Both the position numbers and the translations under genes were made by a program. Of a stretch of 64,000 nt of DNA, positions 14,216 to 63,220 are shown piece after piece. Every line of letters begins with the position of its first letter. Within the stretch, counting starts at the first letter, position 1. The stretch covers positions 42,470,001 through 42,534,000 of the forward strand of contig NC_047015.1 of NCBI RefSeq assembly GCF_902652985.1, given 5' to 3'. The notes beneath the pieces are model-generated. The model did not search any database, was not told the DNA's origin, and saw only the letters and a list, made by a program, of their open reading frames with translations. Origin of the DNA: Pecten maximus (Eukaryota).

Positions 14216-14318
14216 AATTGCTACGTTCTAAACACCACATACAAATAAAGATTCACCTAGAACGTTTGCTGTCAAAGTCGTCAAAAGCAGTGATGTCGAT
14301 CTTAATTTGATACTGGTC

Positions 14319-23200: not shown

Positions 23201-23250
23201 CAGAATCCAACAGCCACAAAAAACAAACTTCAATTGAGAATCTTAAATGT

Positions 23251-32229: not shown

Positions 32230-33530
32230 TCAACCTATTTGACACGTTATCCTAACCATATTGAAGATGGTCTCCGTAACCGTCATTAAGGAAAATATAC
32301 CCAACATCATGTAATCCAGAGACCTTCCTATCTGTGGCCATGTTGCAGCATGCTGTTTTCCTGCATCGTGGTCAATGTCATCGTTACTTGTCGCGGTTTC
32401 TTTAGGATGTTCAAATTCAATATCTGATACTTCAAACACGTTGTCTGCTTTCGAGTCTTTAAGTGTGATTTTTCTGTAGAAACAGAGCATGCGCAACAGC
32501 CAAAGAGGAATTGGCCTGATGTCGCTGAGTCGGTATATATTTAAAGTCACGATTACTGTGAAAACTATAAGACTGCTAGTGATAAGCTTGATCATCAGTG
32601 AAATCTTAAGGATGGACACAGGGTCACTGGTGTTTGGGAATACTGTCCGACATTATTGTCATGTACACGGATAGGGTCAGTGGTATTGTTGTGGCGAACG
32701 ACACTCTCTCCCCGGAGTCCACAGGCAGAACAAATGCCAGCAGGTTGATGAAATTCAACAGACATACCGGAAGAATAATATTATACATCAAGTGTGTTGG
32801 TCTTCGCTCAACAGTTAAGGTAACTGCAATAAATGTATTTGTATTATGAACGGTGTATGTCTGGATTTCTGAATTGCCGAGTTTCCACAATAAATTACTG
32901 TCTGCTCCAGGTAATATGTAAATATTGGTTAGATAAAGTCTGACCTCATTCATCGGTTCCTGCGTTGTAAATTGGAGAATGCATTTGTGTACGTCGTAAG
33001 GATAATAGGTGATGTCTGGATCACAAGTTGTGGTCATCACACCACTCATAAGATACGAAGCTATTCCCGTGCTGTTGTACAAAATGGACGAATCTTCATG
33101 TTTTATTCCATTTATATAAATATCCTCGGCACCGTTTGCTACTACAAAAGTCGGCGCCCATACAACAGTTTCACGCATTCTCACCCGTTCGATGCCACCA
33201 TAGTCTGATGGAATCCACGTCATCATTACGTCCCTCCATGTGACAAAGAGAGACCCCGTGGTCACCATCCTTCCATTTACAGCGTCAAAGTCGATAAAAG
33301 ACTTGAGCGTATACAGTACATTGACGTCAAGTGTATGACTCTGGTTCTGTAACGGACGTACATCTCTGTTGTAGTTCACCATTAAATCCGAATGAAGTTT
33401 AGACATGTTCCCATAGGACTCACCATTGGAATGCTGTACTAAAATACCAATAACTAGGAAGATTCGTATCGCTATATCAATTCGAAAAGGAGTACATCCG
33501 GAGGGATACCTGTTGCGACAACGTTTCCAT
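32230..33530 (-). pseudogene. Single-exon Cys-loop subunit (array gene 5, close paralog of gene 4) with two 1-nt insertions
   Basis: Colinear with gene 4. One extra base just after ATG 33530 (run 33524-33526) and one at ~32640 in the M2-M3 loop; also an L8'P change in M2 (TTIPLTL). Confidence 0.9.
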
Positions 33531-34899
33531 TCTGATCACCTCTATCTCGCATTCGCATGTCGATTAGTTTATTACATTCATCCAATTCTTGTCTATACAT
33601 TAATTAGAAAATGCTACAACCATTTGTTCATTTGAGCATGATATTTGCACAGTGGCATAAACATCTAATACGCGGGATTCTTTGATGGTGAGATTCCCTG
33701 GAGAAATACCCATTCTCATGACAGACAGGCGTTATCTAAACAAGTTTATAGATTTATAGTACATCAAATCAATCAACACAATGCACAACATCAATATGGA
33801 CATACCATGTAGCTTGAAGAATATGGCAGATCTGATTTTGACAACATACCCATAAGATGATGATATACATATAGATGTACAAAAGCACCTTAAATTATTG
33901 CAGTTTGAATCTTAAAGAGAAAAAGGATTAACTAAATGTTAAAACAGTGTCACTAATATATGACTAACGGTTATATATCACATGGACTACTACAGAACCA
34001 AAGAAAAAATCTTAGAAAGAATGTTTAAGCCCCACAATCTCCCCATGGTCTGAACTTAGAATCAAACAAATCCTACACACCAGAATTGGCTCGATTTTAT
34101 TATTATATTGATCATTTATGATTTTAAGATTGCTGATATAGGGGGTTGGGTTGGGGTTGGGGGCAGACGTTATACGCTCAATTAATGTTCTTCTTTATTA
34201 CATTTATTATTGTGTATTCAAATTTTGACAAAACTTTAGTTAATGTTTCAGTGATTAATCACGCGCATTTAACTATTTAACACTTTATATGTACAATGTA
34301 TACGTGTCAATGTACTTACATGCTTATAAACATAAAACTTTATCAAGCTAAACTTCATAATTCCTAATGGATTGATCATCAGTTAATTTAATATGGATTT
34401 ATCATCATTTAATTTAATTCAAACCTGCTCAGTTACGTCAACAATTCAATCGTTAAGTGCAATTAACATCTAAAATTAGAAAATGAACTAACCTTGCGCG
34501 CGCGCCGAGCTACATCCCTGATGACTAGCAGATGAACATGAGTTTGTTTATCAAATGATGATTCAATAGTTTAATAGTGTATCTTTAAGTTTTCGATCTG
34601 AAGCCTTATGGCTCATTATTATGTAGATAGAAACATCAATTTCAGCAACATATTTACAATATGTAAATTAGGAGATTGGTAAAACTGTAACTGATGAAAG
34701 GAATATATAGAAACATTCAACAGCATATATACAATTTACAAGAGAAGTTAGTGGATAGACAAAGCAATATATATAACTGGAGATGAATACATAGAAATAT
34801 TATTTTCAACAGTAAATAAACAATTTTAAAGAATAGGGAGGGGCTGGACAAAACAATAGGTATAATTGGAAATAAAGACATACAAATATGATATTGATA

Positions 34900-36489: not shown

Positions 36490-37734
36490 CTAACCTATGC
36501 GGTACAAAATACGAACCAAATTATATATGGTTTCTACAAGGGTAATACCTGTAAATACTATAAAGAATATAGTGTCCAAACTTCGCCCGATAGAGCGCCA
36601 CGTGATAGAAGATGTGTCGGTTGTCTTTGTTAGGATTGATTTGTCCAAATCTTCCTTTTCTATCACATCTTCGGCCGGACGATCTTCACAGTGGCTTCGG
36701 TCTTCTTTGTTACCAACTCTATTCCTGAATCTTGCGATACGCAACAACCACTTTGGAATAGCTTTGCGTTCATCAGTATGGTTCAATTTCACACTTAAAA
36801 CCACTGCCAGCACTATCATACCACTGTACACAAGTTTGATCAGCAATGAAATCGTGAGAATGGACACCGGGTCACTGGTGTTTGGGATACTGTCCGACAT
36901 TATAGTCATGTACACGGACAGGGTCAGTAACATCGTGATAGCAAACGATACTCTTTCTCCTGAGTCAGTCGGCAGAACAAAAGCTAGAAGGTTTGAAAAA
37001 CTCAATAAACAGATGGGGGTAAGAATATTTAAAATGAGGTAGCTAGGGCGCCGTTCAATGGTTACAGATATTTCGATATATGATACGCCTATTTCTGTAA
37101 AGTTCCTGTATTTAAAATCGATAATGTTCCATAGTAAATTCAGCTGCGCTGCAGGGTACACCTCTTTGGGATTGATTACGAATTCCACCTCGCGGATCGG
37201 TTCTTCTGTTGTCAATGTTATCAAACAGACGTGGACATCATATGGGTAGTACGTGATATCCGGGTCACAAGTTGTCGTCATGACAACCTTGATAAAGTAC
37301 TTAGCCATCCCGTCAGCAGTGAACGCAATCGAGGTATCCCCAAACCTTGAAGTTCTCGTGTTAATATCGTCTGCACCATTAGCCACAAATACCACCGGGG
37401 CCCACACGTCCGACTCTGGAAATGTCACTTTCTCTATATTTGCGTGGCGCACCGGTTTCCATTTCATTTTCTCATCCTTCCATGTCAGGTCAAGTAACCC
37501 CATCGTTGTCATTCTCCCATTGACTACGTCAAAATTGTTAAGTGATTTCAATGTGTATCGTACATTAACTAATAACTTTTTTTCCTGGTTTTCAAGAGGA
37601 CGAACTTTCCTAGAATAACCTGCCAAAAGGTCGGACTTGAGGTTAACCATATCTCCATATTTGGCAGCGGAGACACTTGTGAAGAGCATCGACCATACCT
37701 GTATCAGTAGGATTTTCTTACGAGTATAATCCAT
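36490..37734 (-). CDS. Single-exon Cys-loop ligand-gated ion channel subunit, nAChR-like non-alpha type (array gene 6, intact, 414 aa)
   Basis: Signal peptide; Cys-loop CDPDITYYPYDVHVC; ERRP; M2 SGERVSFAITMLLTLSVYM; four TM helices; no loop C CC. Confidence 0.95.
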   Translation of the reverse strand: MDYTRKKILLIQVWSMLFTSVSAAKYGDMVNLKSDLLAGYSRKVRPLENQEKKLLVNVRYTLKSLNNFDVVNGRMTTMGLLDLTWKDEKMKWKPVRHANIEKVTFPESDVWAPVVFVANGADDINTRTSRFGDTSIAFTADGMAKYFIKVVMTTTCDPDITYYPYDVHVCLITLTTEEPIREVEFVINPKEVYPAAQLNLLWNIIDFKYRNFTEIGVSYIEISVTIERRPSYLILNILTPICLLSFSNLLAFVLPTDSGERVSFAITMLLTLSVYMTIMSDSIPNTSDPVSILTISLLIKLVYSGMIVLAVVLSVKLNHTDERKAIPKWLLRIARFRNRVGNKEDRSHCEDRPAEDVIEKEDLDKSILTKTTDTSSITWRSIGRSLDTIFFIVFTGITLVETIYNLVRILYRIG

Positions 37735-40700
37735 GTTCTGCCAGAATTAAACTGAGCTCAGTCTCCAGAACTATGGGTGATATAACCAGTAATTGAAATA
37801 TTTTATCGTCCAAGAATATTGGGGCTGGATCAAGTGATAGATTTAATATCACATTGATACTTACGTCAAAGAGAGTTGTCTCATTTTACACTGTCGTATT
37901 TGTATCGTTATAAGATTGTCCACAGTATGTATATACCCTGTTAGCTTAACGAGAAAATGTCAAAATTTCATTTTAGTTTTCTTTTTTCAAATCTCGCGGA
38001 AAAAGTGTGTTTTTAAATTTTTTTTTTTTGATTCAGTTTGTTGAAATCTTAGAACGGTAGAACGTGATAGTAATATTAAAGGACAGTTTATATTACCAGT
38101 ATCATGTTGAGTTGAGGAAGCTGCAAGACAGATGGAGATAATAATTCACGAGTTACCACTTATCGGCATAGACCAATCAATCGTGAACTTTATGTTAATA
38201 GATTGTGCAAACAAATTTATAGCATCATTTAAAGTTTAAGCACATGTAAATGGTCAGAATTAATAGTTCGGTGCCAATGTACGTAAACCCATGATTCGCT
38301 AATGGACATCGTTACAACTGCCAAGGAGAGGCGTCATTATTTCCGAAGATACGAATCGATGTAAATATCAGATCTAGATATTATCTTAGCCTCCTAGTGC
38401 GCGTGTGTCATCCATATAGATCGTGGGATGAGACATGTGAATTTCTACAGAAACATTTCATAATTTAGCTAGAATGAGGCTTTGTTGGATTGACCAATCA
38501 GTAAATATCTGGAAGATTTCTGTATTGTTAATGTATAGCACACTACTTTTATAATGTGTTTTAATATTGATCTTTAAGACAAAACAGGGACAACTTGGTC
38601 TGCAGATCGCATGAAAACAATCCCCAGGATGACTTTATATCAAACCACTCCCATGTGTGATAAGGCGCACACAATTTATTAACCAAATTCTATTTTTTTC
38701 ATTAGATTGAGGATTTATTATAGAATATAAAGGTGTATCATTGCCGCCACGGTTTCATCAATATTCCCAAATTTAAAGATGCTACAGCGCCGACAGAGAA
38801 TAATTATGCTCGAATGAAAACAAGAATGGAATGTTGCATATTTTCATAAAATACCCAAAGTTACATACTTTATGCTATGTCCACCCTCATAAAGTCCAGC
38901 TTTTGATTGTATCTTTTGAATTCAAAATGGAAAAATTATTCGTGCTCAGCAGCTACCAACTTGTCCCTTTTCGAGGGATATGTATAAAGTACATGTAGGG
39001 GAGCCCGCACTAATCCAGTCTCAATTTAGGAAAGTGGCAGTTTATACATGACTTATGCAGATAGACCTCTGAAGAATGTATATTTAATTAAAACAATCAC
39101 TGACATACATGTATATAGTTGTTACTGGCTATGTCTTGTTAGGTTTCTTGTGACCCACAATTTTCTGAAAAATGAAGTTATATGAAGATGTGGGAATACA
39201 CTTAATATCAAATTAATTGTGTAAACCTCTTTAATACTAAAACTTTAATCATGTATCGTTAATGATTTAGTATCAGATATATAGCAATGTAACCCGGATT
39301 TATAGTTCAAAGAATAATCCTTAGGACATTATGACAATGGTTACATCAAATAGAAACGACAGACAATTACAAAACAAATCAAAAGATTAAATGATTGAAA
39401 TAAAGAAGCGCATAACTAGATTTTAGCAGATAACTCAACTCCAACTACTTTTATACCTTTTTTTTGTCAAACGATATCAGCATACATAATCAGTTCCATA
39501 AGTTTGTATATACAGTCTACTGGGCTGTTCCAAGGGAGATAACTGTTTTGTAACATTCACTTAAGTATGGTTGGTCGAAAGTTCGTGATCATCAATGGTA
39601 ACAAATATATCACTGAATGATAAGGTTAACTACAATAAGTCTCACGATAAATTTGACAGAGGCAACTTGAAAAGAGATTAAAAAAAAAAAGATTTTTAAT
39701 GTTAAGTGCAATAAATGACATGATAGCTAGCAAGCCAGCCAGCCAAACAGACAATAATCGTCATTTTAAATTTGACAGATAGACCTAGTTAACTTGAAAA
39801 GAGATTTATTTTTGTTGATTTGTACCCACATGACATCAATCGTGTACTCTAAAAAATAATTAATAAATGCTGGTAGGCTAGTGTTCCTCCCCATTCTTAC
39901 CAATTATGACTAAATAGGACAGCTTTTGAGAAGATCGTTATTCTATTACATTAAAGCTGTTGTCATTAAGTTTTATAGATGGTCGCTGTGTCGAAGTTTT
40001 ACTTCACTTTTTCAGTTAACCTGATGGTGTCGTTAGTTCAGTGTTTTGAGTTTCCCAGTTATCACGGATAAGTTGAACATGTCATCGCTTTAATACCCGC
40101 ATTTGTGAATCCTTTAGAAAAGGCCGATATTGTTGTCACGAAGCTCCGCCTTTAAATGATCCACTATTGTTCATCTTAACAGGATGGCGTTGTAAGCAAC
40201 AGGATATTCAAATATTTTGTGTATATCGATATAGTATAAAGCATACATATGTCTTTCTACAAATACAAATGTATTACATATAAATCCAACTTAATAGTAT
40301 AGAACACTATTACTTTAGTATATACAGATGTAGATCAGGACATGGCACTGTCTGTGTACACTATGAAGGTAATCAATTCATCAAATATATTTACCTGGTG
40401 TGTACATACAGCTGCTTGGAAACCGACAAACGTGTTTTATAGAACTCACCTGGGGACACAAATCTAACTGTTTAATCCGAGACGTTTTCTGTCGCGGCAT
40501 TTAATAATCTTCATTCAGAAGTAGGTAACAGGTTACTGCGATTCACCTAGGTCATTATTCTTACAGTGATCGGCTCACAATTACGACAAATTATACATGT
40601 ACCTGTAACGGGACACACGCTCCAACAAGTCTTAGATTCGAACTGGTAATCACCTTAGCGGGACATCTCGTATTTATAACGCAGTCTATACATATATGTA

Positions 40701-42035: not shown

Positions 42036-43331
42036 TCCTCCTCTCTTCTCCCACTCTCATCAGTGTTATCAGTTATCGTTATCTTCTCTACCTTTCCTCA
42101 ACTCTGCTCTCCTCAATGTCCCCCATACATACCCCCCACACGAAAAACATACACCTCTGTTACAAACGAAAAGCACACACACCTCTGTTACAAACAAAAG
42201 TATCTGGATCCTACAACATCATAGCTTTATGTTTGCTGTTCCGTCATCTATCCATCTAATTATGGAAATTGAAATAGTCCGCTCTCCTTTAAGCGGATAT
42301 ATGGATTATATACATGTAAAGTATCATTATTAGTGTAATTTTTGTGTATGACGTTTAAAAATTATATCGTCGGGAGTAAAATCTGCTGGAATTTAATATT
42401 GATTACTTTTGAATGTTTTAATAATCCAATTAACACAATTAATCTGTTGTATTAACAAAACACTTATTACGTGCCCCCTCCAAAAAAATCACCGAACCGT
42501 TTTTATGACATTTGACATTTCACTGATGTTTGATGTACCGTAAATCTGTTAAATCTATAAATTTATATATTATATAAGTATGAGATAAACACCTGTGGCT
42601 TACAACTACAAACTTACTAACTCAAATACGTAACCTGTAATACGATTCCTTATTGGATAAAGCATTACATTAAATGTAACAGAATAATCGCCTTTATAGC
42701 AGACCAAATAACCAGTGGCAATGTACACAGTTATATAAGTTAGGGTAATCCCTCCGCTCAAGCATGAACATTACAGGTAAAAACTAGCATTATACCAAAG
42801 TAGGTATTTAAAACATTATTGGACTATTCATCGCTTTTAGGTATTTGGGGCGATAGATTGTCAGATTTCAATACTAAAGCTCAGTAAGACGGCTTACTTG
42901 TACTTTTGGAGGTTTATGTATTGTAGGTATACAGTTTGTACAGTGACATGGCTGGTGTTCAGTAAGCCACTATTGTTATTACAGGGCAGGCGATTTGTAT
43001 TGTGTGAGCCTAATTACCTGTATAAACTAATATACCTGTATACTAATATACGTGTACTACTGGGATAAAACAATCGGCAGACTACGGCCGGTATGAAACC
43101 TGTGTACCCATTTGTGATACTGGCAGAACTTATAATATAACATATAATAATACTGCTGAACAGCGCTAGTTCGTTTACACAGCGACCCTCCGGAGATGTT
43201 TACTCCAGTATGTATGCATAATTCAGGTAGAATTTGTTATTAACTTACCGTGGATATATATGGACCTGTTCTCATACGTGGGGAGTACGTGATCGGATGA
43301 ATTAGATCGTGAGTCGAACAGGTAGCTAGAT

Positions 43332-45008
43332 ATGGCGGAAACCAATGGACATGTGGTCCCGGTTCTGCGAGAAGATATTGGAAGTCGGGGAATAGACAGA
43401 CGGAAGGACATACGCATGTGTAAACGCCATACGAAGAAAAAAGTCAGATATGTCTGTGAATCGTGTGGTGGTGAGAAAATATGCAAAAAATGTTTAAAAT
43501 CTACCCACAAAGATCATCAGATTGTTAGTGTGTCTAAGCCAAAAAAGAAACGTCGCCAAGCTGGATCGAAGACTCTAGAGGATTTAATTGGAAGCAGTGG
43601 TGGTGATTCGGAGAAAGTCGTGGATATTGGTAAACAGGACAATGAAGATACCACGGCGATAGACTTACTGGAGAACGCACAGAAGACGATTGAAGATATA
43701 GACGTGAAAGTAAAAGAATTCACCAAGGCGAGGAAAGATTTAAAACATGCCACGCATGTAGAAGTGGAAAAGGTGAGAGACAGGGCCGCCGCTCTGAAAC
43801 AGCAGGTTGATGAACTCGCAATGAAGCTAGAGAGCAGGCTACGAGACTTCCGGAAAACGAAAGATACGATTTTCAAAGATCACGAACGAGCTCTGAAGGA
43901 ATGTTCAAAAAATTTAAAAGACTACTGTATAAAATGTAAATCTACGCAGAATGAATCCTCCAGTGATTCCGGATTACACGTCGAGAAAAGTTTTGACATT
44001 CAACATGAAATAGAACAGTTTCTCAACAAAGAGCAGCACTTAGATATTCCAGTGGCCACAATGGACGAGTTTGTCCCGTGTACTACCTCACTGGAGCACA
44101 TTATGAAGGTGTTCGGTGATATGGATTTGCAGGAAAAGACCAATGTGTTAAGCAAGAGAAAGAGTAGTATCGTACCAACATGCTTGGAATTTACAGAAAT
44201 TTCAGCCTTTCAGTTCGAGGGTGAGGTAATGCGGTCCATCTGTCCGACACCGGAAGGAAGTTCGTGGATCGTGCGCGAGACAAACAATATGGTTTATACA
44301 GACATACAGCATGTGACTAACGACGGGGAAGTAGAATCGTCGAGCGTTTTTGGGGCAGGTGTCCTTGACATTGCTTCGAACATGGGCGACTTGACACTGG
44401 TCAGCTGTACCGACAACACTGTCCGAAGAGTGCTTCCAGATGGTCAGTCTTTTGTCCGGTTTCGAACCGAGGCTAGACCAGAAAGTATTTGCTTCCAGTC
44501 CAATAACAATGTGGTCGTGTGTTTCTTTAAGAAAAAGAAAGTTGCCGTGTTTAACCTTAAGGGGAGACAACTCCTGTCTTGCACGGATGCAAAATCGGAA
44601 GCGGATTTCATAACGCATCCCTTTCGAGTTAGGTCGAACCGGAAGAATGACGACATAGCTGTTCTCAATGCCGATCCGTATTCATTGGTGGTGATGGACA
44701 AAAACCTCAATCTCAAGTTCATCTACAATAGTTCTACCTACTATCCCAAGGATATCCAAGAAGGCGGTTTAGCTCAAGTGGCGCACCCAAACTTCCCTGT
44801 GCTTCCTAATGACGTGTGCTTTGATAACAGACATAATATTCTGCTCTGTGACGCCGCCAGCAAGTGCATTTTAACGCTTGATTCCAACGGTAGTATGCTC
44901 AGAGCAATCTGTCCTGAAAATGACCTACCTTCGTCCCTATCGTTGGATATAAATAACTTCCTATGGGTCGGATACCACAATGGACAGGTGAAAATAATCG
45001 AATTTTGA
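43332..45008 (+). CDS. RING-less TRIM-like protein: B-box type 2, coiled coil, NHL/beta-propeller (558 aa, uninterrupted ORF)
   Basis: CKRH...CESC....ICKKC....HKDH B-box; heptad-rich helical middle; C-terminal NHL-like repeats (PESICF, HPFRV, PNDVCFD..HNILLCD, LWVG). Confidence 0.88.
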   Translation: MAETNGHVVPVLREDIGSRGIDRRKDIRMCKRHTKKKVRYVCESCGGEKICKKCLKSTHKDHQIVSVSKPKKKRRQAGSKTLEDLIGSSGGDSEKVVDIGKQDNEDTTAIDLLENAQKTIEDIDVKVKEFTKARKDLKHATHVEVEKVRDRAAALKQQVDELAMKLESRLRDFRKTKDTIFKDHERALKECSKNLKDYCIKCKSTQNESSSDSGLHVEKSFDIQHEIEQFLNKEQHLDIPVATMDEFVPCTTSLEHIMKVFGDMDLQEKTNVLSKRKSSIVPTCLEFTEISAFQFEGEVMRSICPTPEGSSWIVRETNNMVYTDIQHVTNDGEVESSSVFGAGVLDIASNMGDLTLVSCTDNTVRRVLPDGQSFVRFRTEARPESICFQSNNNVVVCFFKKKKVAVFNLKGRQLLSCTDAKSEADFITHPFRVRSNRKNDDIAVLNADPYSLVVMDKNLNLKFIYNSSTYYPKDIQEGGLAQVAHPNFPVLPNDVCFDNRHNILLCDAASKCILTLDSNGSMLRAICPENDLPSSLSLDINNFLWVGYHNGQVKIIEF

Positions 45009-47420: not shown

Positions 47421-47740
47421 TAGTAAATTCTGATTATATTACTTCCTTAGCGATAGATTACCGGAAGTAACTGAACAACACTCCGTTCCGTCACCCTTCA
47501 GTGGTTCTACTATTTATTGATATGATATTAATGGTTATACAGAAATACTGTTTTTACTGCTGCTTTATCACAATCATAGTCCGTATGGTAACTTGAAAAC
47601 GCTATAACACTGTTATATTTGCCCATAGTCCATACTTTGACATAACTTGTGCACACTGTTTCTATTACTCGTATATGTTTACAATATTACATATCATTCT
47701 GTCACTATTTAACGTTCACTATTACATGTATACGTGTGCA

Positions 47741-48806
47741 CTTATAAATGTACAGATACAAACTTATACATGTAGATACAAACTTATACATGAACATTTA
47801 TAAGCTTATACATGTACAGATACAAACTTATACATGTACAGATACAAACTTATACATGTACAGATACAAACTTATACATGTACAGATACAAACTAATACA
47901 TGTACAGATACAAATTTATAAATGTACAGATACAAACTTATACATATAGATACAAATTTATACATGTACAGATACAAACTTATACATGTACAGATACAAA
48001 CTTATACCTGTACAGATACAAACTTATACATGTACAGATACAAACTTATACCTGTACAGATACCAACTTATACATATAGATACAAACATTTACATGTACA
48101 GATACTAACTTATACATATAGATACAAACTTATAAATGTACAGATACAAACTTATACATGTACAGATACAAACTTATACATGTACAGATACAAACTTATA
48201 CATATAGATACAAACTTATAAATGTACAGATACAAACTGATACATGTAGATACAAACTTATACATGTACAGATACAAACTTATAAATGTACAGATACAAA
48301 CTTATACGTGTACAGATACAAACTAATACATGTACAGATAAAAACTTATAAATGTACAGATACAAACTTATACATGTACAGATACAAACTTATACATGTA
48401 CAGATACAAACTTATCCATGTACAGATACAAACTGATACATGTACAGATACAAACTAATACATGTACAGATAAAAACTTATAAATGTACAGATACAAACT
48501 TATACATGTACAGATACAAACTTATAAATGTACAGATACAAACTTATACGTGTACAGATACAAACTAATACATGTACAGATAAAAACTTATAAATGTACA
48601 GATACAAACTTATACATGTACAGATACAAACTTATCCATGTACAGATACAAACTGATACATGTACAGATACAAACTTATACATGTACAGATACAAACTAA
48701 TACATGTATAGATACAAACTTGTACATGTGCAGATACACACTTATAAATGTACAGATACAAACTTATACATGTACAGATACAAACTTATACATGTACAGA
48801 TACAAA
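47741..48806. repeat. 22-bp minisatellite (ttatacatgtacagatacaaac), ~49 copies; one more unit at 55096-55117
   Basis: Direct inspection; 20-bp variants are interspersed, and the array is cut by the transposon at 48807. Confidence 0.98.
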
Positions 48807-49509
48807 GGACTAAGTGCACTATAGGCTATTTTTGGCTCCACATCCGATATAATTGATTATCACACACAACATAGACCTAGTGTTAGTATTTGCAAAAATG
48901 CATGATTTGAGGCGATCGCCTTTTTCGTTGCCTAGCAACGGTCCCTAACAACCATGTAGTCATAGTATGCATATTTGCTATATTTTGAGAAAATTTTGTC
49001 TGACATAGCCTTGTAATGTACGATGAAATTCTGATAAACACTTAAAGTAATACATGTATTGTAAGTAATCAGGAAAAAACTGTTATACAACAAAAACATG
49101 CATTTCTTCCATAGCAACAGTTTTAAATCCCTAGCAACCACAAGCTAAATTAATATTTTTGCGTGAAAATTAATTATGGAATCAGTATAAAGTGCAAAGA
49201 ATTGAGTTTGCAACTCATTTTTATGAACTATGTTGGATTAAATCAGTACATTGAAAAAGAAACCAGTTACATGTATATGATGTGCAAATAATGCATTTGT
49301 AATGGAGTATTGCATAAGAATTAAAACAAACCTTGAAGTCAGGAAAGACAACAGACTGTTAATAAATAAACATTTAGGCATTAAATTGTGTCAGATTGTG
49401 AATCGTTCATTGGCAAATAATAAAAACAAAATGAGGAAACATAAAGAAGAAATATAGTTCATTGTATGTTCAGAAAATATATAAATCATAGTCATTCACA
49501 GTGCAATCT

Positions 49510-52500
49510 TCACTCCTCCAACGGATCGTTACTAGAGAATGTTCCTGACGAAGACGAAGCATTTAAACAAGATGAAGCTAGTCCAGGTTTTCCCAATTGA
49601 TCCTCTGGCAAATGTCGTTTCCAGCCAAGAAACCAAAGGACACTGGCAACATGTGCACAACACCCAACAACTCTGGCGCCTACTTTACACGTACAGTACC
49701 AGCCCCGAATATTCCCAGTGTCTGAAGTGTACTGAATCCAGAGGGTGTGGATCGCGTTTTTGGAGTGTCTGGACTGTATCTTTACTCTCAGCAAATCTGC
49801 AGAATAAACAAGAAATTGAAATTATATCTGCCGTGTTCCTTGTGACTGAAGTAATTATAACCCACCATGGCCACAATATTTATACTATCAAAGATGTTAC
49901 CCTGTTTTAATATTGCATGTCAAAGACTATGCTTACTATGTCACAGTCGCGGGCATTGATCATCGGAAGACAAACTTGGAGCAAAATATTAAAGGATTTC
50001 AAAAGTAATCAATGCATTACATTGTCAAGAATGTTCGGCTTTCAACGACGTGCACAATTATATTTCACATTCATGCAAATATTGCTGCTTTTATATAGTA
50101 ATGATGTAAACATGAGTGTTTATATAAGTAATAGAGATAGTCTAATCACTACCTACCGGGAAAGTCACGGCATGCCATCAGTTCATATCCCCCATCATCA
50201 TCAGTGTGCTCCTTGGTGTATGCTGGAGCCTGTTTCACCTGGTAAACACCCATGGTTATATTCCTAAGGTCATCTAATGATAGGTGAGGAAAGTCATCCA
50301 GGTCTGTAGAGGAAGTTCCGTCCAACGGTTTATAAATCGACCTCTTGTTCAACAAGCTATTCTCTTCTATCAGTACCTGGACGCTGTTAATCTTTCCTGC
50401 TCTCTCGAGCATCTGCACGGCAACGGCCTGCGTTTCTGGATCCATGCTGGCAAGGGGCTTTTTGTACCGGTTGCAAATGGCACACACAATCTTGACAAGG
50501 TCTCCAACATGAGGGACAAGTGTATTTGGCAACACTTTGTCAAAGAGGCGGAATTGCTTCAGTCGCCCATTGACACTTTCCACAACCCAACGTACCTAAA
50601 ATAAGGAAACAAAGATGTTCTATTTACTTTCTAGTACTTTTTTTTATTAACAATTAAATGCTTTGCACAATGTTCAATTGTCATGATGAACGCAGCATGA
50701 TTAACTTGAATTATGTTAAACAGCACGGCATCAGGTGAACGCGAGATCAAACAACTGACTAAGTATACAGACAATTAACGAAGTACATGGTACATATTAT
50801 GTAATCACTGATAAAGGCTATTTCAACATTTTCACACACGTATTGTTGACAAATGTTATCTAAAAATGTTAGTATCCAGTAAAAAATGTGTTTAAAACCT
50901 GAATACTTTATCAGTTGCCATTCATCGCAAATTCTTCAACAATTTACCTTTGTCACCAACCGGGACAAGTTGGACTCTTCCGTAGTGTGTTGTTTTTTCC
51001 CTTTGGCCAGATAAGCGGGCATTTCTACCTTCAATCCGATCTTTTCCAAGTATTCCACAGCGTCTCTGAACCCACGGTCAACAATGAAGACGTCATCTTT
51101 CTTCAACCATGTCCGAATCTCTTCAAGGTTGTGGTTCAGTACATGCTTGGTGATGCTGGCGTCGTTGTTGCCGTAGTCAGCCAGGTATGGACCCAGTACA
51201 CTCAGGATGTATCCATCTGTTCCTACCACCATCATAGGCTTTACCAATGGCCTGTTCTTATGTAGTGAGTAGGACATCCTCTGGAATTTGTAGTCCATAC
51301 TCTTTTGTATGTATAGGTATGTCCCTAAAACAACATAAATAATATACGTATATGGACATGGTACTAATTTTACGGTTACATTTTAACGCATCATTCATTT
51401 CAAACAGATGTATCATATTACAAATGAATAATAGGTTTTTTTTTCAGACACATATTCAATGGTAAATGAAGAACTTACATTTACAATTACACATATGTAT
51501 AGTTCTACTGTGTTAACTGACCGCATACTATGGTTGTTAATATTTAACATTTATCCTTGAATTTCAGTACCAGATATATTATAGTGTTAAGATAACAGTT
51601 TCGTGGAAAAACATACCATCGAGTACAAGGACGGCTTCTTTTCCTGTCGTAAACAGCTCCTTGGCAATTGTCGTCGTGTGTTTTTCAATAAAGTCGTTGT
51701 GGGCTAAATGGCCAAATCCAAGGTGTGTCGGCACAAGTGTTTCCATCAAGCATTGTCGTACGCGAGGAATAATTCTCTGAACCTGAAAAACCCACCAATG
51801 TGCACTAGAATAACAACTAGGTCTTCCAAAATTGTAGTTTTCATAGATTATATAATAGTTTGTCATATTATTCACATCGCATTAGATATAAGAGACAAGA
51901 ATTGGTTCATTTCATTTTAACAACCATGGTCATTTATGGGCGTGCTGGTTTTTGGAGGTGGAGGAAGACCGGAATACATAGAAAAAACCTGACGACCTAC
52001 CGTCAGTATAGAGGACCTACTATCAGTACCTGGTAAATGTCCAATGCGGGTTTAGAACTCACAACCCATAGGTGGAGATCTTATAGTGATAAAGTGTCGG
52101 GACACCTTAACCACTCGGCCAATGCAGTAGCTACAATTGACTGTTCAAGACATAAAGAAAATATCGCTGGGATAGTGACATCATAGTGTGAAATAAAATG
52201 TCTAGGTATAGCTTTCGTTAAATTATAGAAAAATATAGATAATATACCTGTGCAGTATTCAAGTTGAAAATTGTCCCTAGGATGGCATTGGGTAATCCAG
52301 TTTTCATCTTTGCCATGAAAATAGCCAAGCAGGTTCTGGAGGAGCGGTTTGAATTGTTCCTTACGGATGATGTCAGTTGTCCTGCCAAGTCATGAAACTG
52401 GTCTTTGGACAAGCCAGTGATGTTGGTGTATTCCTCCGTAGACAGAGCCGCTGGGTTGTCGAAATCTATATGTCCCTTTGCCTTCACGTTATCTCGGATA

Positions 52501-53006
52501 CCATTCATCAGCGCTGTTATATCCGTTCTTGAAAAAAACTCACTTTTCTTGGTTGCTGAGAGTTTTGTTAGAGCATCTGTGGTGAAATACGACCTTTGCA
52601 TGTGTTCCCTGCAGCAACGACTTTGGGAGTTTATGTAGACGCCTTTATCAATAAAGGCTTGAGAAATGGCAGTTGACCCTACACGGGTGAGATTTTTTGA
52701 CTTTTTACAGATTACACATCTTTTATTGTTACGTGGTGTTGACTTTATATTGAGTTGAATATTCTGTGGACTCTTCAGGGTTTCCTTTACAGTTACGGTC
52801 TGTTTATCTTGATCGTCTCCAGAGGAAGTGGTAGCCTGCTTTTTGGAACGTAAAGCCTTCAAGCGGCACTTGGAACATATTTGGTCGTCTGATGTAACCT
52901 GACGACATATCAGTTTTGATACTATTTTCTTGGACGCCTTTGGAACTGGTCGCCTATCCCTTGGGTTGACCCTCTTCCGACAAACAATGCAATCATATGC
53001 CTTCAT
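49510..53006 (-). CDS. Spliced transposase, 675 aa: N-terminal Zn fingers, HTH, DDE (DDE_Tnp_4-like) and C-terminal SWIM finger. Exons 53006-52248, 51782-51617, 51324-50948, 50595-50157, 49796-49510
   Basis: All four introns are GT-AG with consistent phases; the joined CDS is 2028 nt with no internal stop. Catalytic VLDGTY, IVDRGF and RWVVESVNG motifs; SWIM YCTCKVGARVVGCCAH. Confidence 0.9.
51903..52130 (-). mobile_element. tRNA-derived SINE nested in transposase intron 1
   Basis: Minus strand: TGGCCGAGTGGTTAAG A-box, GAGTTCTAAAC B-box-like, TTTTTCTATGTATTCCGGTCTTCCTCCACC V-like core and a tail. Confidence 0.7.
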
Positions 53007-53454
53007 TTCCTTCTGTTTAACAAAAATTAAAAACATGTACAAGCCAATATCGATTATCAAATTCTTAAATGATATTCCCTACAACGTTGATGCATGTACA
53101 TTGTATATAGTTATTGCTTCGCTTTATTATTGATACCATTCTTAATTTATTTTTATCTAAGCTACTATCACATATTTGAAATTCTTGGATACAGAAATAG
53201 TCATTTGAAATTAAAAAGAAAACGGAGAAGAAAGAAGCTTACAGGTGCTGAGAGATATAATACATTGTATATCTAAAGCAAATTGGAATAAACAATTTAT
53301 TTTAAAATCTCACTTACTGTTAATTCAGTGAAAAAATACAGAATTTAAGATGTTCATTGATATTATAATTTGTATATATCAGTCTCAAAATACCCAGATC
53401 TGGATGGTCTAAGAATTAAAAATCTAGTTAAAAAAATAAATAAAAATAACATTT

Positions 53455-53520
53455 TCCGATATTCGAACTCGTGACCTTCCATTAACAAGTCAAGACTTCT
53501 ACCTGTTACGCCACAGGGGC
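53455..53520 (-). other. tRNA-like (SINE head) fragment upstream of the transposase ATG
   Basis: Minus strand TGGCGTAACAGG ... GAGTTCGAAT with tRNA-like spacing; the acceptor stem does not pair convincingly. Confidence 0.4.
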
Positions 53521-56333
53521 TTTCATTTTCATTGCAATGCAAAACATGTATATAAACAAAAACTTAATGTGTATTACATTCCGTCGAGTGACGTAATACG
53601 TTCTATTTTTAACGCATGGTCAACTTCTTTTCACTGAAGAAACGGGATTTAAAACTTTTTACGGTGTTATTTTTAATTGGTTTTCTTTTCACATAAACGC
53701 AACGTAACAAAAAAGCAAAGACGACCATAAATATACAAACATTTATAATGCAGGATGCCATTTTGTTGACGATAGTGACATGAACACGGGCGGGGCGGGT
53801 CGAGTGGCAGACGATCGCGACCATTGACACAGTTCAAAAGGGAATTTGATTTCCTCGGGGAGAGCACGACAGAATTTCTGTTGTTATTCTATATATTATT
53901 TTATAAAAAACATTCATGACACGATTTGATCACCGCACACTTATATAGCCTAGTTGGGTCGAACTGTCTCGGGCCATAATAATCTCTTGAAATGTCGCGA
54001 TCGAAATAGCATGTTTTGTCGGCATTGTCATTGTGTCGACCGCGGAACAAGTCAGTCAGTGTTGGTTTTTGTTGTTTTGAACAATGAACATCGATTGTAG
54101 ACATCTGCCCCGTTTTCAAAATGATAACAAGAGTTTATTTTCTTCATAACATGATGGACAATAATCCCGATTTTATAACTTATCGACATATAATAAAGGC
54201 CAAACTAGGCACGTTAACGTTAGTTCTGTCCGCGGACAGTAAGCTTAGTCTTATGTAACCGTCGGGTTTTTCAGCAAGATTTCCCCCCAAGATTTATCAT
54301 GATCACATTTATAATCAATATTTTCAAAATTGATTAATTTCACTTACCTTTTTTTCAAATTATCTTATCATCCATAGGTTCTTGAGTGGTGTCTTGACAA
54401 TTTCCAATCCACCTATAAGTAGCATCAAGATGACGTTGACGTTGTAACTAAAAAACGGCGTTATTACGGATATAATCTGGTTAATCTTTTATTTTTTTTA
54501 AACATGAGCGCATGCATGTCCCATCTTAAGATATATGTTAATATTTTCCTTAAGATTCATGTTTATTTATGTAATTTTATTTTGATGGGACATACATGCG
54601 CTCTACTTCGTTTTCATGTGTGAATGTGACCACCAACCAATACTCATATTAGTGCCGTTAAAAAATTCCGCCAGCGTTTGTTTACTTTTAAGTACTGCTC
54701 TGATCATTACCAGTATTATTTGCAGACTTATTTCAGTACAAATGTTTGTAAAAAACAGCTTTAGACAGGAAATGAGCTGAAATTTCGTATTGGTATGTTT
54801 GATTTTTGGTTAGTGCTGCAAAGCTGCAATAATTTCCATCTGAAGCGTGTATACATGCAATATAAAAGCAAAATGACGTTGTCCCTTTCTACTGGATTGG
54901 CCATATATCGGCAATAATTAATTGCATTTACAACTATGCTTTAAAAATATTTCGTGGAAGAAATCAAACAAAAGACACTACAAACATGTATTTCAGATCA
55001 ATCTTTATTGAATAGATTCTACAAATCAAACTTTTCTCTGAAACAAAATTCTGACAAACTATGGAGCATAAACCAGCTGTTAGTGCATTTAGTCCTTTAT
55101 ACATGTACAGATACAAATGTAAGTACGATAAACTTTGTCACAACTTATTTATAGTCATCAGTTTCACAGAAGCGGCTAAGTTTAGTGTCAACTAAATAAT
55201 TTTTTTCAAAGTCTCTCGAGATTATATCACACCTGCAGTTTGACTAAGTATTATTAAGTATCTAATATAGATTAAAATATCATGACTAAGTTGAACTTAA
55301 ACAGATAAGTTAGATAGTTAACGGATTTGATATAGAACATTACATATATAATACTCCCATTGAAATTGATTAGATAACAGGGTGCGTATGTCAACTATGG
55401 CCTGTTTTATTTCTTTGGAAAGTAGTTAACCTAGGTCAGAAATAGCAAAATACGAGCCTTTTACCATTACGAGGTACAGATTGTTAGACGGCTAGATGAA
55501 AAAAAAAGTTTCGTTCATAATTTGACAAAAAAAGTTTATGACATTCGCAAACGTTGTCAGAAAAATAGATTATGAATTTATGTAAAAAGATAAATGTCAA
55601 GCCATATGAAATTTGATGAGTTACACAAAACACCAAAATTAGATAACCATCTTTAAAGTGTCGTCTCCTACGTATGAACGACACCACCAGGAAGTATTTA
55701 GACTGGGTCGTCAAACTAACATTTAAAACACTTACATTTTTATGCGGAAGGTTCGTACTCGGATGTACTTCAAAATGTAATGAATAAGAAATAATACGTT
55801 ACCAAGTATGTACAACTTGTATGCATACTATACGCGTAAGCATTAATATATATACTCGCGAAATATACCTAACATTCAACCGAGAACTATGGGGTATAAA
55901 TAATTGGATATATCACCAATTGATGAAATAATCATAAAAATATTCAAAAATAAATAAAATAGCCATCGATAAAATATCGTCCTTCTTTTGAAGGACACCA
56001 TAAGGAAGTATTCTGACTGATTCATACCGGACTTTTATAAGATTAAACTTAAAGTTAGACACTTTGTTACAACAGTCTGGTTCTTAGCGGAGTTCTTCCT
56101 GGTAATTGTCCTAATTATACTTTTAGTTCATTCTATCACTTGGTCTGCATGTGGCCGGTACGGAAGTGTTTCGTCATTATTTCCTCCTTAGTACAACCAG
56201 CCAATTTTTATTGATCATAAGATCGGTTCGACAGCTGGTGTATTATAGCGTAGGAAATGAAGGCCAATCTGCTATCTTAATGGAGGATTCTTATTAAGAC
56301 TTTCATTTGGGAATTATTGCAGCAGTAGTATTC

Positions 56334-58730
56334 ATGATCATTCCGAAAAATCCAATGGAAATGTGGATAAATATTTTTCTGTGTCTGTGTGGAATATCCT
56401 CACTACACGGCGGAGGGTGGGGTTACACCCCTCCGGAAGGCATTGGGGCGATGTGTGCCGCTAACGTCACCAGAGACACCAGTGTACCATGTGACTACTC
56501 CTCACGACGTGAACAATATTGGAGGACCAGTGTCAATGATGATCAACCTTGCAAACTGAAAATTAAGAAAAGATCTCTTGATAATTTCCAACGAAAATAC
56601 ACACATCTCAAGTTTAATTTTGCTCAACTACTCCTGAAGTTTAGGATAAATGATACGGCGGTATCGGTTTCCTCTACGAAATGTGTAATTCAACCCCTGA
56701 ATTGGGCATGGACCCACAGAGGACAAAAAGGCGCGTACAAAGCTCTTTTCTGGCCACGTGATTATTCGATATTATCTCTAGGAACGCTAAAAAGAAATTT
56801 TTTCGGTCCATACTGTGTGTTCATTGACATGCAAGGCAATTGTTCTTCTTTTGTAATTGGAGAAATGAATACAACACTAGCGATAGTTCATGCACTTTCC
56901 GAACTGATACCTGAAAAGAAAACGGACCATCTTCCGTTCGGAATGGTGGAAGATACCAATATGTGGTGTTATACGAAGATGGTTAATATAACCGACACAA
57001 TGCGTTCCCTATGTCGATATACCATTTGTCCACAGAACACGGTGGGCTATTCCTGCTGCAAACACGACTTCCATACTAAATCCCTACATTGTAACGGAGA
57101 GCCGTTCCGGTACTTCAAGTTTTGGTGGGAACTACCGTATGTTATTGGTAGCGTTGTATTCCTATTTTTCCCGCTCTTTTTTATTGCAATATCGGATAGG
57201 CTATATCGGATATTGAGGAACCAAAAATCAATGAGTTACAAACCAAATGAACAAGAGGGTTACGAATGGATCTCGGAGAACCATGTGTGTTTCAGCGCGG
57301 CTCTGTTCTCCCCGTTTCAAGGTCTTGTCATCCGACACATGGTTGCCGTGTCGAGATTTGTCAGGTTCGCATTCTCATTGTGCACGGTGTTTATAACCGC
57401 TATTTACCTAATCGTGGTATGGAAGACTTACTCTCTACGTTTATTTCATATAGATCTTGTTAAAAACCACGTGACAACTGACGTAAATTCTATGCTTTCT
57501 GGTTTCGAGATGAGTCGCCAGAACTTTCTGACGCTGTTTGGTGGTCCATATGTTGCGTTCAGCATGTTCTTACTTCTCTTTGCGGCGCTGTTATCAGTCC
57601 CGAAAAGTTTGGCAATTTTATTAGAGTCAGGCTTACCAGATCCCTCTCCGGAACACTTATCTCCTCTATGTGTAGACATGAACACTGTATCTACTCTAGG
57701 GTCTACACAATCTCTACATACAACCATCGGCTACAATAAAATATATAGAACTTTACTGGCCCAAATGGCAATGTTGTTCAATCCAGAATTCTGGAGATTC
57801 GTTCTGAAATGCCAGATAAAGAGATGGATAAGTTTCAGTGAATATTCATCCCCGTGTAAATTTCGCGTGTTTCTAGTGTACTTCGTCACACTTCCGGTAT
57901 TCGCGGTGACGTGTGTGCTGGAATGGATCACTTGCATTCTGTATTACGGACTTCCGATAGTTTTTGTAAATGTAATAGTGTATAGAGCTTATTGCTCGAA
58001 CATAAAACGGTATTTGCGTAGCACCAATGGAAGTATCACAAAACATTTTACTTTTCTATTCATATGTTTGATCGCGATTGTTTTGTTGTACTGTTGCTAC
58101 ATCTTACATATATTATTTGTGTATAGTTTTGTATTGGTAGCTCGCACCGCCATATTTACGTACACTGGTTTCGTAGCCTACCCGGAACACTACCGTAACT
58201 ACCTTATATGTTATCTTAGCGTCGCCATATACATCGTGGAGTCCATTCGATCCATGAAACTCACGTACGACGAGCTGTTTGATCAAACCAAACTGGTGTG
58301 TGATATTATGATGGACGACGTTATGTACAATGGTTCAAGCATCATAAAGACAGTAGAATCGAAAATCTTTATTCCTCAGCGTTTATTCAATTTTGTTATC
58401 AGCCATCAAAAACCTTTGAGAATTGAAACTTTCTTAATGTTCTTCAGACTGTTAATTACTATCATGGTGATCTATATGTCCGTAGTAATGCTGGTCATAT
58501 TTGACACGTTTGACCACATGAACGTGTTGACCGAAATTGGAACAACGGTTGTCATCTGTATGGCGCCTAAGGTTTTACGAAGTGCCTTTAAATGTTCCGG
58601 ATATAGTAATGAAGTGGAGGAGCGACAGACCATCAAGCTATGGGTGGTTGACTACCTGAATGAATTTACATCCAATATGGATAGACATGTACAGGAAAGG
58701 GATAAATCGATGTCTCTTGCTGTTTTGTGA
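56334..58730 (+). CDS. Uncharacterised single-exon multi-pass membrane protein (~798 aa): signal peptide, Cys-rich glycosylated ectodomain, ~9-10 TM segments
   Basis: 2.4-kb uninterrupted ORF in AT-rich DNA. First ATG 56334 (alternative 56355); hydrophobic N-terminus; many Cys and N-x-S/T sequons in the first ~260 aa, then many hydrophobic stretches. Family not recognised. Confidence 0.85.
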   Translation: MIIPKNPMEMWINIFLCLCGISSLHGGGWGYTPPEGIGAMCAANVTRDTSVPCDYSSRREQYWRTSVNDDQPCKLKIKKRSLDNFQRKYTHLKFNFAQLLLKFRINDTAVSVSSTKCVIQPLNWAWTHRGQKGAYKALFWPRDYSILSLGTLKRNFFGPYCVFIDMQGNCSSFVIGEMNTTLAIVHALSELIPEKKTDHLPFGMVEDTNMWCYTKMVNITDTMRSLCRYTICPQNTVGYSCCKHDFHTKSLHCNGEPFRYFKFWWELPYVIGSVVFLFFPLFFIAISDRLYRILRNQKSMSYKPNEQEGYEWISENHVCFSAALFSPFQGLVIRHMVAVSRFVRFAFSLCTVFITAIYLIVVWKTYSLRLFHIDLVKNHVTTDVNSMLSGFEMSRQNFLTLFGGPYVAFSMFLLLFAALLSVPKSLAILLESGLPDPSPEHLSPLCVDMNTVSTLGSTQSLHTTIGYNKIYRTLLAQMAMLFNPEFWRFVLKCQIKRWISFSEYSSPCKFRVFLVYFVTLPVFAVTCVLEWITCILYYGLPIVFVNVIVYRAYCSNIKRYLRSTNGSITKHFTFLFICLIAIVLLYCCYILHILFVYSFVLVARTAIFTYTGFVAYPEHYRNYLICYLSVAIYIVESIRSMKLTYDELFDQTKLVCDIMMDDVMYNGSSIIKTVESKIFIPQRLFNFVISHQKPLRIETFLMFFRLLITIMVIYMSVVMLVIFDTFDHMNVLTEIGTTVVICMAPKVLRSAFKCSGYSNEVEERQTIKLWVVDYLNEFTSNMDRHVQERDKSMSLAVL

Positions 58731-60975: not shown

Positions 60976-63220
60976 GGGTTACAATAGTATCTGTGTGACA
61001 AGGGGGTTACAATAGTATATGTGTGACAAGGGGGTTACAATAGTATATGTGTGACAAGGGGGTTACAATAGTATATGTGTGACAAGAGGGTTACATTAAA
61101 CAATAGTCGGGTGGGGTGTCTCTGTGTGACAAGGGGTTACAATAGTATATGTGTGACAAGTTGGTTACAATAGTATATGTGTGACAAGTGGGTTATCTTA
61201 AACAATAGTCGGGTAGGGTGTATCTGTGTGACAAGGGGGTTACAATAGTATATGTGTGACAAGGGGGTTACAATAGTATATGTGTGACAAGGGGGTTACA
61301 ATAGTATATGTGTGACAAGGGGGTTACATTAAACAATAGTCGGGTGGGGTGTATCTGTGTGACAAGGGGGTTACATTTGAAAAATTGTCGGGTGGGGTGT
61401 ATCTGTGTGACAAGAGGTTACATTAAAAATAGTCGGGTGGGGTGTATCCATGTGACGAGAGGGTACCAATAGTCAGGTAGGGTGTATCTGTGTGACAAGG
61501 GGGTTACAATAGTCGGGTGGGGTGTTTTGTGTGGCAAGGGGGTTAAAATAGTCGGGTGGGATGTATTTTTGTGGCAAGGGGGTTACAATAGTCGGGTGGG
61601 GTATATCTGTGTGACAAGGGGGTTACAATAGTCGGGTGGGGTGTATCTGTTTGACAAGGGGGCTACAATAGTCGGGTGGGGTGTATCTGTGTGACAAGGG
61701 GGTTACAATAGTGGGTGAGGTGTATCTGTGTGACAAGGGGGTTACAATAGTCGGGTGGGGTGTATCTGTGTGACAAGGGGGTTAAAATAGTCGGGTGGGG
61801 TGTATCTGTGTGACAAGGGAGTTACAATAGTCGGGAGGGGTATATCTATATGACAAGGGGGTTACAATAGTGGGGTGAGGTGTATCTGTGTGACAAGGGG
61901 GTTACAATAGTCGGGTGGGGTGTATCTGTGTGACAAGGGGGTTACAATAGTCGGGTGGGGTGTATCTGTGTGACAAGGGGGTTACAATAGTCGGGTGGGG
62001 TGTATCTGTGTGACAAGGGGGTTACAATAGTGGGGTGGGGTGTATCTGTGTGACAAGGGGGTTACAATAGTGGGGTGTGGTGTATCTGTGTGACAAGGGG
62101 GTTACAATAGTGGGGTGTGGTGTATCTGTGTGACAAGGGGGTTACAATAGTCGGGTGGGGTGTATCTGTGTGACAAGGGGGTTACAATAGTGGGGTGTGG
62201 TGTATCTGTGTGACAAGGGGGTTACAATAGTGGGGTGGGGTGTATCTGTGTGACAAGGGGGTTACAATAGTGGGGTGTGGTGTATCTGTGTGACAAGGGG
62301 GTTACAATAGTGGGGTGGGGTGTATCTGTGTGACAAGGGGGTTACAATAGTCGGGTGGGGTGTATCTGTGTGACAAGGGGGTTACAATAGTCGGGTGGGG
62401 TGTATCTGTGTGACAAGGGGGTTACAATAGTCGGGTGGGGTGTATCTGTATGACAAGGGGGTTACAATAGTCGGGTGGGGTGTATCTGTGTGACAAGGGG
62501 GTTACAATAGTCGGGTGGGGTGTATCTGTGTGACAAGGGGGTTACAATAGTCGGGTGGGGTGTATCTATGTGACAAGGGAGTTACAATAGTCACGTAGGG
62601 TGTATCTATGTGACAAGGGAGGTACAATAGTCGGGTGTGGTGTATCTGTGTGACAAGACGGTAACAATAGTCGGGTGGGGTGTATCTGTGTGACAAGACG
62701 GTAACAATAGTGGGTGGGGAGTATCTGTGTGACAAGGGGGTTACAATAGTCGGGTGGGGTGTATCTGTGTGACAAGGGGGTTATAATAGTCGGGTGGGGT
62801 GTATCTGTGTGACAAGGGGTTACAATAGTCGGGTGGGATGTATCTGTGTGACAAGGGGTTACAATAGTCGGGTGGGGTGTATCTGTGTGACAAGGGAGTT
62901 ATAGTAGTCGGGTGGGGTGTATCTATGTGACAAGGGGGTTACAATAGTCGGGTGGGGTGTATCTGTGTGACAAGGGATTACAATAGTCGGGTGGGATGTA
63001 TCTGTGTGACAAGGGGTTACAATAGTCGGGTGGGGTGTATCTGTGTGACAAGGGAGTTATAGTAGTCGGGTGGGGTGTATCTGTGTGACAAGGGGGTTAC
63101 AATAGTCGGGTGGGGTGTATCTATGTGACAAGGGGGTTACAATAGTCGGGTTGGGTGTTTATGTGTGACAAGGTGGTTAGAATACTCGGGTGGGGTGTAT
63201 CTGTGTGAGAAAGGGGTGAT
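60976..63220. repeat. G-rich minisatellite, 40-bp unit (gttacaatagtcgggtggggtgtatctgtgtgacaagggg) with 28-bp variants at the left end
   Basis: Exact 40-bp periodicity at 61861-62520; the shorter gggggttacaatagtatatgtgtgacaa unit occurs at 60976-61320. Confidence 0.98.

Follow-up and report, generated by a model that had tools for sequence, protein, structure and literature searches.

A Spy-group transposon with a spliced transposase gene in a satellite array of the scallop Pecten maximus

A 64,000-nucleotide (nt) stretch of the scallop Pecten maximus genome (assembly GCF_902652985.1, contig NC_047015.1, forward-strand positions 42,470,001 to 42,534,000; here called the window, whose coordinates are used throughout) carries a whole transposon of the Spy group at 48807-55095 (6289 bp). 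As an earlier note made from the sequence alone had proposed, the element is bounded by 34-nt imperfect terminal inverted repeats (TIRs), at 48807-48840 (plus strand, 3' side of the gene) and 55062-55095 (minus strand, 5' side), which match at 26 of 34 positions and at 14 of the first 15. One begins GGACTAAG and the other GGACTAAA, both in agreement with the GGANNNNG motif of Spy termini (PMC4122938). The host DNA is a 22-nt satellite (49 units at 47740-48806), with host AAA to the left of the element (48804-48806, plus strand; empty sites agree) and host TTT with the remainder of the last unit to the right (55096-55117, plus strand). The insertion point is the last-but-one unit, a rare variant with AAATTT (2 of 47 units, versus 33 with AAACTT), which is a good fit with target choice. 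The same note held that removing the element restores a perfect satellite unit; excision in silico does restore the 22-nt period and length, but the resulting unit is the rare AAATTT form and not the AAACTT consensus. The full unit recurs at three unrelated loci, so the transposase gene does not belong to a separate nested element.

The gene is on the minus strand, and its five coding exons, separated by four GT..AG introns, give a stop-free product of 675 amino acids (aa), confirming by translation the structure that had been predicted. Exon 1 (52248-53006; aa 1-253) codes for two Cys/His fingers (C6/C9+C44/C47 and C97/C100+C132/H135) and most of a helix-turn-helix (HTH); exon 2 (51617-51782; aa 254-308) contains catalytic D308 at 51618-51620; exon 3 (50948-51324; aa 309-434) contains D391 at 51077-51079; exon 4 (50157-50595; aa 435-580) contains E440 at 50578-50580, completing a D(82)D(48)E triad; and exon 5 (49510-49796; aa 581-675 and the stop) codes for a C-terminal SWIM finger at 49651-49695 (C615/C617/C627/H629). 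These three Cys/His sets are the ones previously suspected. Intron 1 (51783-52247; 465 nt) and intron 3 (50596-50947; 352 nt) are in phase 0, and intron 2 (51325-51616; 292 nt), right behind the first catalytic Asp, and intron 4 (49797-50156; 360 nt) are in phase 1. An alternative intron 4 donor four bases further in, giving a 618-aa frameshifted product, was rejected, as RNA uses the first donor. Intron 1 includes a high-copy repeat of ~200 nt (51917-52121, minus strand; >30 matches at 72-77%, with very deep RNA contigs) that by eye resembles a tRNA-derived short interspersed nuclear element (SINE), and in which ARAGORN and Rfam called no RNA gene. As first noticed, the element shows no second gene. 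Outside the transposase gene, its stop-to-stop frames reach at most 77 aa in the 5' part and 70 aa in the 3' part, and it has neither the second open reading frame (ORF) with a YqaJ exonuclease typical of ISL2EU nor the Myb/SANT gene of PIF/Harbinger.

The Pfam SWIM match in exon 5 (18.5 bits, cut-off 19.6) and the pieces of DDE_Tnp_4 in exons 3 and 4 each fall marginally below cut-off because the exon pieces are short. HTH_Tnp_4 is matched in 46 of 61 homologs and in the related protein P0002 (439 of 662 residues identical to the window protein), but not on the separate exon pieces of the window, where intron 1 splits the HTH. Single-sequence structure prediction of the protein was unusable (predicted local distance difference test [pLDDT] 32), a PDB sequence search gave no match, and fold searches gave generic DDE matches only. 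The P0002 structure model (pLDDT 89) has an N-terminal finger that is weakly ZAD-like (Z 5.9, root mean square deviation [rmsd] 5.0, 67 residues aligned), a C2CH second finger, an HTH at residues 190-267 matching the sigma-4 type, a DDE core of RNase H fold (best Z 9.9, rmsd 5.3), and at the C-terminus a domain resembling the SWIM region of ZSWIM8 (Z 8.1, rmsd 2.9, 94 aligned). Comparison of finger 2 of the window protein, likewise C2CH-like, with THAP gave an hhalign probability of 3.8% (against just two THAP sequences), an Atlas TM of 0.39, and no Pfam THAP match. The P. maximus protein P0001 is 100% identical across exon 3.

Copies of the family were surveyed in the genome (G000) by scoring 40 of 1535 candidates. 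Three are full length, the window copy (C1), C12 (99.5%), and C4 (99.3%), the latter two with 16 and 39 substitutions relative to the window over 6.29 kb; both retain the open frame and all GT-AG sites, with three amino-acid changes each. There are also broken or partial copies (C18 and C19), a 1.7-kb internal-deletion derivative (C10), and a 342-bp two-ended copy resembling a miniature inverted-repeat transposable element (C3). C18 and C19 are older; their exons are free of indels, and gaps occupy 44 and 17 intron columns, respectively. Both break within the intron-1 repeat, where C18 has its right end inverted (L012:4206-4606) and C19 has exon 1 replaced by 763 bp of another repeat (L011:4186-4948). 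A 13-nt TIR seed has 27 genome matches (23 for a control pattern), and true family ends were defined as seed matches with at least 20 of 27 further bases; AAA lies outside 12 of 12 true ends and 0 of 15 seed-only matches, which excludes a chance flank. A 27-nt TIR-like fragment without an AAA flank is present in a tandem repeat (L132/L133; G000:C5:14815673-14815712).

Empty sites were compared for the C12 and C10 insertions. C12 sits in a repeated ORF for an endonuclease of the long interspersed nuclear element (LINE) type, the reading frame of which continues across the empty site. Of the 14 best paralogs, 13 have a gap-free AAA^TTT and the other ends before the site. C10 sits in a palindromic repeat, and its empty paralogs are AAA^TTT in 9 of 11 cases, with local indels in two; the opposite arm of the palindrome was set aside as an ambiguous empty site and the paralogs used in its place. 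These unaltered sites show that AAA and TTT are host bases and that nothing is duplicated or lost. Neither the AT duplication of strict ISL2EU nor the 3-bp TWA duplication of PIF/Harbinger is seen at them. The claim of AAA^TTT insertion without a target-site duplication (TSD) is thus upheld by the empty paralogs and the satellite period, and the flanks of the other copies, tabulated by TIR, have no TSDs or deviant termini.

The family is transcribed and spliced, and the transcripts match the sister copies C12 and C4, not the window copy. Eight of 24 listed runs were examined (X1-X7 and X12), all as assembled contigs, and runs X13-X24 have next to none of the family's sequence words. In X1 and X2, from one study, a single contig each crosses the four predicted junctions, beginning at 53606 or 53195 and reaching ~49321, and X12, from a second study, bridges introns 1, 3, and 4. 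X7 meets intron 1 with a 29-nt side and X3 meets intron 2 with a 28-nt side, both below the threshold of the tool. All four junctions predicted for the window are therefore spliced in RNA contigs from sister copies: wherever the copies differ, the X1 contig has the C12 variant (6 of 6 sites), and four C4 variants are present in X7. The longest spliced contigs span 49321-53606 (minus strand) and include a ~600-nt unspliced 5' leader with 14 ATGs; an in-frame ATG at 53036 would extend the protein by 10 aa. A 5' non-coding exon suggested by a loose RNA end at 53272 was rejected as a chance short match to the unrelated C11 locus, the main contig being unspliced to 53606. Within the leader, ~65 nt (53455-53520, minus strand) appear tRNA-like by eye, with A and B boxes, and gave no call with ARAGORN or Rfam. 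Two other contigs are of note: a deep unspliced X4 contig at 48807-49875, with ~1 kb of flank leading into the element end, and an X3 joint between 49659 and 53919 that is a C10-type deletion junction.

Spy elements were described (Han 2014, PMC4122938) as inserting at AAA|TTT without a TSD, with GGANNNNG termini and one ORF containing an HTH, and blunt joining was offered there as speculation; PMC9179366 likewise describes one ORF with DDE and HTH, and Repbase places Spy under ISL2EU (according to PMC12730594). Flanks, empty sites, termini, single gene, and core all agree with this group, as first supposed. In a DDE-core tree, 14 Spy-type rows separate from 25 other DDE_Tnp_4 proteins of the genome (Shimodaira-Hasegawa approximate likelihood ratio test 100), 12 of which are YqaJ neighbours, and ISL2EU in this genome is mostly D(74)D(45-51)E. 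AAA|GG..CC|TTT ends occur at 6 of 22 related loci fetched from the genome, which also has intronless Spy families, 44-50% identical and with the same ends, among which the window element nests. A Spy profile search returned 1577 clusters at E <=1e-30, possibly including other PHIS proteins, and 59 of 61 full-length homologs have the window-type architecture. Within the Spy group, the element as such is unremarkable. A sister family (L024, G000:C10:34715000-34724500, element at 1970-7890) is 5921 bp long and frameshifted, with AAA|TTT flanks and similar TIRs. One Spy-type transposase (P0108) is filed under a bacterial symbiont metagenome-assembled genome, host contamination being the likely cause.

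Most Spy transposases were said, as a descriptive remark, to be without a zinc finger (PMC4122938), and the suggestion in the earlier note that this domain architecture was perhaps uncatalogued holds good in that respect. The window protein, with three Cys/His sets, does not fit the remark. The C-terminal finger is present in 59 of 61 full-length homologs, and among 145 further representatives in 106 of the 109 relatives aligning there, with the second N-terminal finger in 78 of 79. Moreover, the oyster, ant, and strepsipteran proteins of that same study (Spy-1_CGi, Spy_AEc, and Spy_MMo) carry the C-terminal finger, so the remark fails to sort members from non-members. Conserved zinc fingers in Spy look unreported: literature searches found no printed note of SWIM in Spy or ISL2EU, with Repbase, Dfam, and subscription journals outside their scope, and the main text of PMC11304231 has no mention of zinc, SWIM, intron, exon, or excision. 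Some UniRef names already read "SWIM-type domain-containing."

Introns were mapped in the window and 22 related loci, with three (L029, L037, and L043) uncounted owing to poor splice calls. The window family has introns at 254/0, 309/1, 435/0, and 581/1 (codon/phase), and the sister family (L024, L016, and L017) has these four and a predicted fifth at 554/0, which in L024 has a short repeated CAG|GT on both sides and is possibly a recent gain. Elsewhere, 435/0 is present in L040, 436/2 in L034 and L035, 426/0 with 498/0 in L033, and 498/0 in L038, L039, and L041; L025, L027, L030, L031, and L032 are in a single frame. Spy families of this one genome thus have 0 to 5 introns at eight positions, and many sites are AG|GT. 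RNA support is for the window family introns only, and those of L033 agree with NCBI model P0053. An origin of the introns as inserted elements was rejected: introns 2-4 gave no match outside the family, in a search that skips common words, and the window introns have no similarity to those of other families. In a quick-search tree of 36 rows, intronless families occur in each of the two main clades and also in the most distant pair, making repeated gain the simpler reading; this distribution suggests repeated intron gain in Spy genes, which looks unreported. Introns as such are known from DNA transposases.

Very probably, the element is an intact and young representative of the Spy group in the PHIS superfamily, the copies of which lie exactly in AAA^TTT without duplication, and it is likely to be still capable of cut-and-paste movement by means of a single, predicted spliced transposase. 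Judging by DDE biology and the published work on Spy, binding of the TIRs would fall to the HTH and N-terminal fingers. The RNase H-fold D308-D391-E440 core would then free the element at the terminal GG, and its two 3' ends would be joined to bonds lying directly opposite each other in the middle of AAATTT, with zero stagger and hence no gap to fill. The C-terminal SWIM domain, standard in Spy transposases, probably aids complex assembly or target holding, and the four introns were probably gained in the scallop lineage after its split from intronless Spy families. Several observations weigh against this reading. Only X7 is recorded as RNA, the RNA status of the other runs being guessed; firm bridging of intron 2 comes from a single study; contigs of X4, X5, and X6 have no splice junction, and X3 and X6 hold unspliced pieces. 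A base private to the window at 51671 (Thr291, Pro in all four other copies) is absent in all four runs listing the site. NCBI model P0001 splices introns 1 and 2 and ends inside intron 3, an end contradicted by the RNA contigs, which splice that intron. The D-D spacing of 82, a value shared by Spy-1_CGi, is outside the quoted Spy range of 79-80; the two trees come from quick searches, lack bootstrap values, and were built without published Spy or Harbinger sequences; and of five Spy transposases that looked intact, three were inactive in HeLa cells (PMC11304231).

The family may instead have been active recently and now be immobile, with the copies as young relics, or with only C12 and C4 making a working enzyme and the window copy silent. 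This is the less probable account but a serious one: only three full-length copies were found, the variants in the transcripts are those of C12 and C4, upstream ATGs are numerous in the leader, and the window copy lies in satellite and has the private Pro291Thr change. Frames and splice sites are nonetheless intact in all three copies, divergence is below 1%, and position 291 is variable among homologs. How the ends join bears on a different alternative, in which a staggered cut is compensated by flanking bases carried with the element and the net sequence merely looks blunt. With a fixed palindromic target, sequence by itself would not separate the two, and in the sister group ISL2EU the cut at A|AT|T is staggered by 2 nt (PMC4482050); however, cgSpy gives no TSD in human cells, though only ~60% of its sites are AAWTT (PMC11304231), and blunt joining was the proposal in PMC4122938, so a compensated stagger seems quite unlikely.

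Fingers and introns also enter into two further alternatives. The earlier note had raised the prospect of a distinct lineage, and a PHIS lineage defined by zinc fingers and introns would follow from taking Spy to be fingerless and single-ORF, given the three fingers and four introns of the window gene. It is, however, very hard to credit: Spy-1_CGi has the same layout, as do 59 of 61 full-length homologs, Spy_AEc and Spy_MMo share the C-terminal finger, and the DDE-tree split, the 6 of 22 loci with AAA|GG..CC|TTT ends, and the nesting among intronless families also speak against it. An intron-rich ancestor, from which the intronless families lost their introns, as proposed for CACTA transposases, is unlikely, if less so. 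Loss prevails in CACTA (PMC4158355), 435/0 is common to the window family and the distant L040, and 498/0 is in two families with intronless relatives in the same clade; yet the eight positions are scattered on the tree, five being limited to one small clade, the most distant rows (L036 and L037) are in one frame over ~q43-585, and published Spy elements are single ORFs. Repeated gain is preferred.

The closest likeness to the Spy C-terminus is in the SWIM domain of the YqaJ partner proteins of ISL2EU. A Spy C-terminal profile aligns with the SWIM region of the YqaJ ORFs of this genome (hhalign 80%, E 1.3e-5, 53 columns) and scores seven YqaJ-ORF SWIMs at 9.9-16.7 bits, while four other SWIMs score <=0.4. 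Of 199 motif-preserving shuffles, two attained 10 bits. Atlas structure rows include YqaJ clusters in 3 of 10 cases and one related exonuclease cluster (TM 0.65-0.72, 101-115 residues), with a generic SWIM cluster at 0.61. The resemblance suggests that Spy kept the SWIM domain of the partner protein and lost the YqaJ nuclease. A broader proposal, tentative and on balance doubtful, is that Spy is an ISL2EU whose transposase acquired at its end, by fusion, the SWIM-bearing domain of the partner protein, with the exonuclease dropped, that this overlooked domain helps one protein to find AAATTT and join blunt without duplication, and that Spy genes are a natural record of repeated intron gain. Against fusion, the profile scores are low, the controls few, and the fold common to ZSWIM8; a rearrangement is needed because the two ISL2EU genes face each other; and no Spy-YqaJ intermediate was found among 30 long relatives scanned. 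Six of these 30 long Spy-like representatives (P0149, P0155, P0168, P0174, P0204, and P0239) have a C-terminal Ulp1/Peptidase_C48 domain and are possibly an undescribed Spy subgroup.

Elsewhere in the window is a tandem cluster of long, single-frame ligand-gated ion channel ORFs with Neur_chan_LBD and membrane domains (9096-10274, 13190-14227, 27745-29064, 32627-33535, and 36493-37746, all minus strand), with a further piece at 17840-18406. On the plus strand are a LINE with endonuclease and reverse transcriptase in two frames (22126-26124), a 560-aa B-box ORF (43326-45005), and an 810-aa open frame with no Pfam match at E 0.001 (56298-58727). Tandem arrays rich in G, with periods of 28, 40, and 102 nt and a strong GC skew, are at 60976-63217.

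Spy elements are TSD-less cut-and-paste transposons now being tried for gene delivery, and one of the two working ones is from a bivalve. The scallop family is a further candidate, young and expressed, whose spliced coding sequence is verified and would be overlooked in a survey confined to ORFs. It also puts right the description of Spy, in that the enzymes carry conserved zinc fingers, and the C-terminal SWIM domain offers a handle on the mechanism of TSD-less joining and on the loss of the second Spy gene.

Among known systems, Mutator (MuDR) and Zisupton transposases also have a SWIM finger C-terminal to the DDE core, and a SWIM-plus-Ulp1 layout is found in Zisupton and some Mutator elements, as in those Spy relatives that add an Ulp1 protease; they differ from Spy in belonging to another catalytic family and in their long TSDs (9-12 bp in Mutator). 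PIF/Harbinger, Pangu, and Nuwa share the PHIS core motif D-K-D-D-P-R-E, for which the window translation has spacings of 22, 31, 27, 19, 24, and 3, but they make 3-bp duplications and have a second gene. ISL2EU is the sister group, with a DDE_Tnp_4 core and GG termini, and differs in its AT duplication and second YqaJ gene, and perhaps in its THAP finger (PMC4482050). Closer still are cvSpy and cgSpy, which like the window element have a ~700-aa transposase, a short TIR (27 bp in cvSpy), AAA/TTT flanks, young multiple copies, and a bivalve host (Diaby 2024, PMC11304231). Both are active, and oyster Spy transposes in HeLa cells, whereas the window family is known from sequence and transcripts; Table S1 of that study lists a Pema-Spy of 7586 bp with no TIR found and 372 aa, which may or may not be the window family. 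The nearest published counterpart in layout is Spy-1_CGi of the Pacific oyster (Repbase ISL2EU-4_CGi; PMC4122938), with AAA|TTT flanks, a short TIR starting GGA, and one gene. Its 682-aa product and the 675-aa window protein both have two N-terminal Cys/His sets, D(82)D(48)E, and a C-terminal CxC..CxH finger, and by eye (PMC4122938 supplement) the cores align gap-free, with 48 of 82 residues identical between the two Asp. Spy-1_CGi is drawn as one ORF in 3622 bp, whereas the window element takes up 6289 bp, with four introns and a SINE-like insert.

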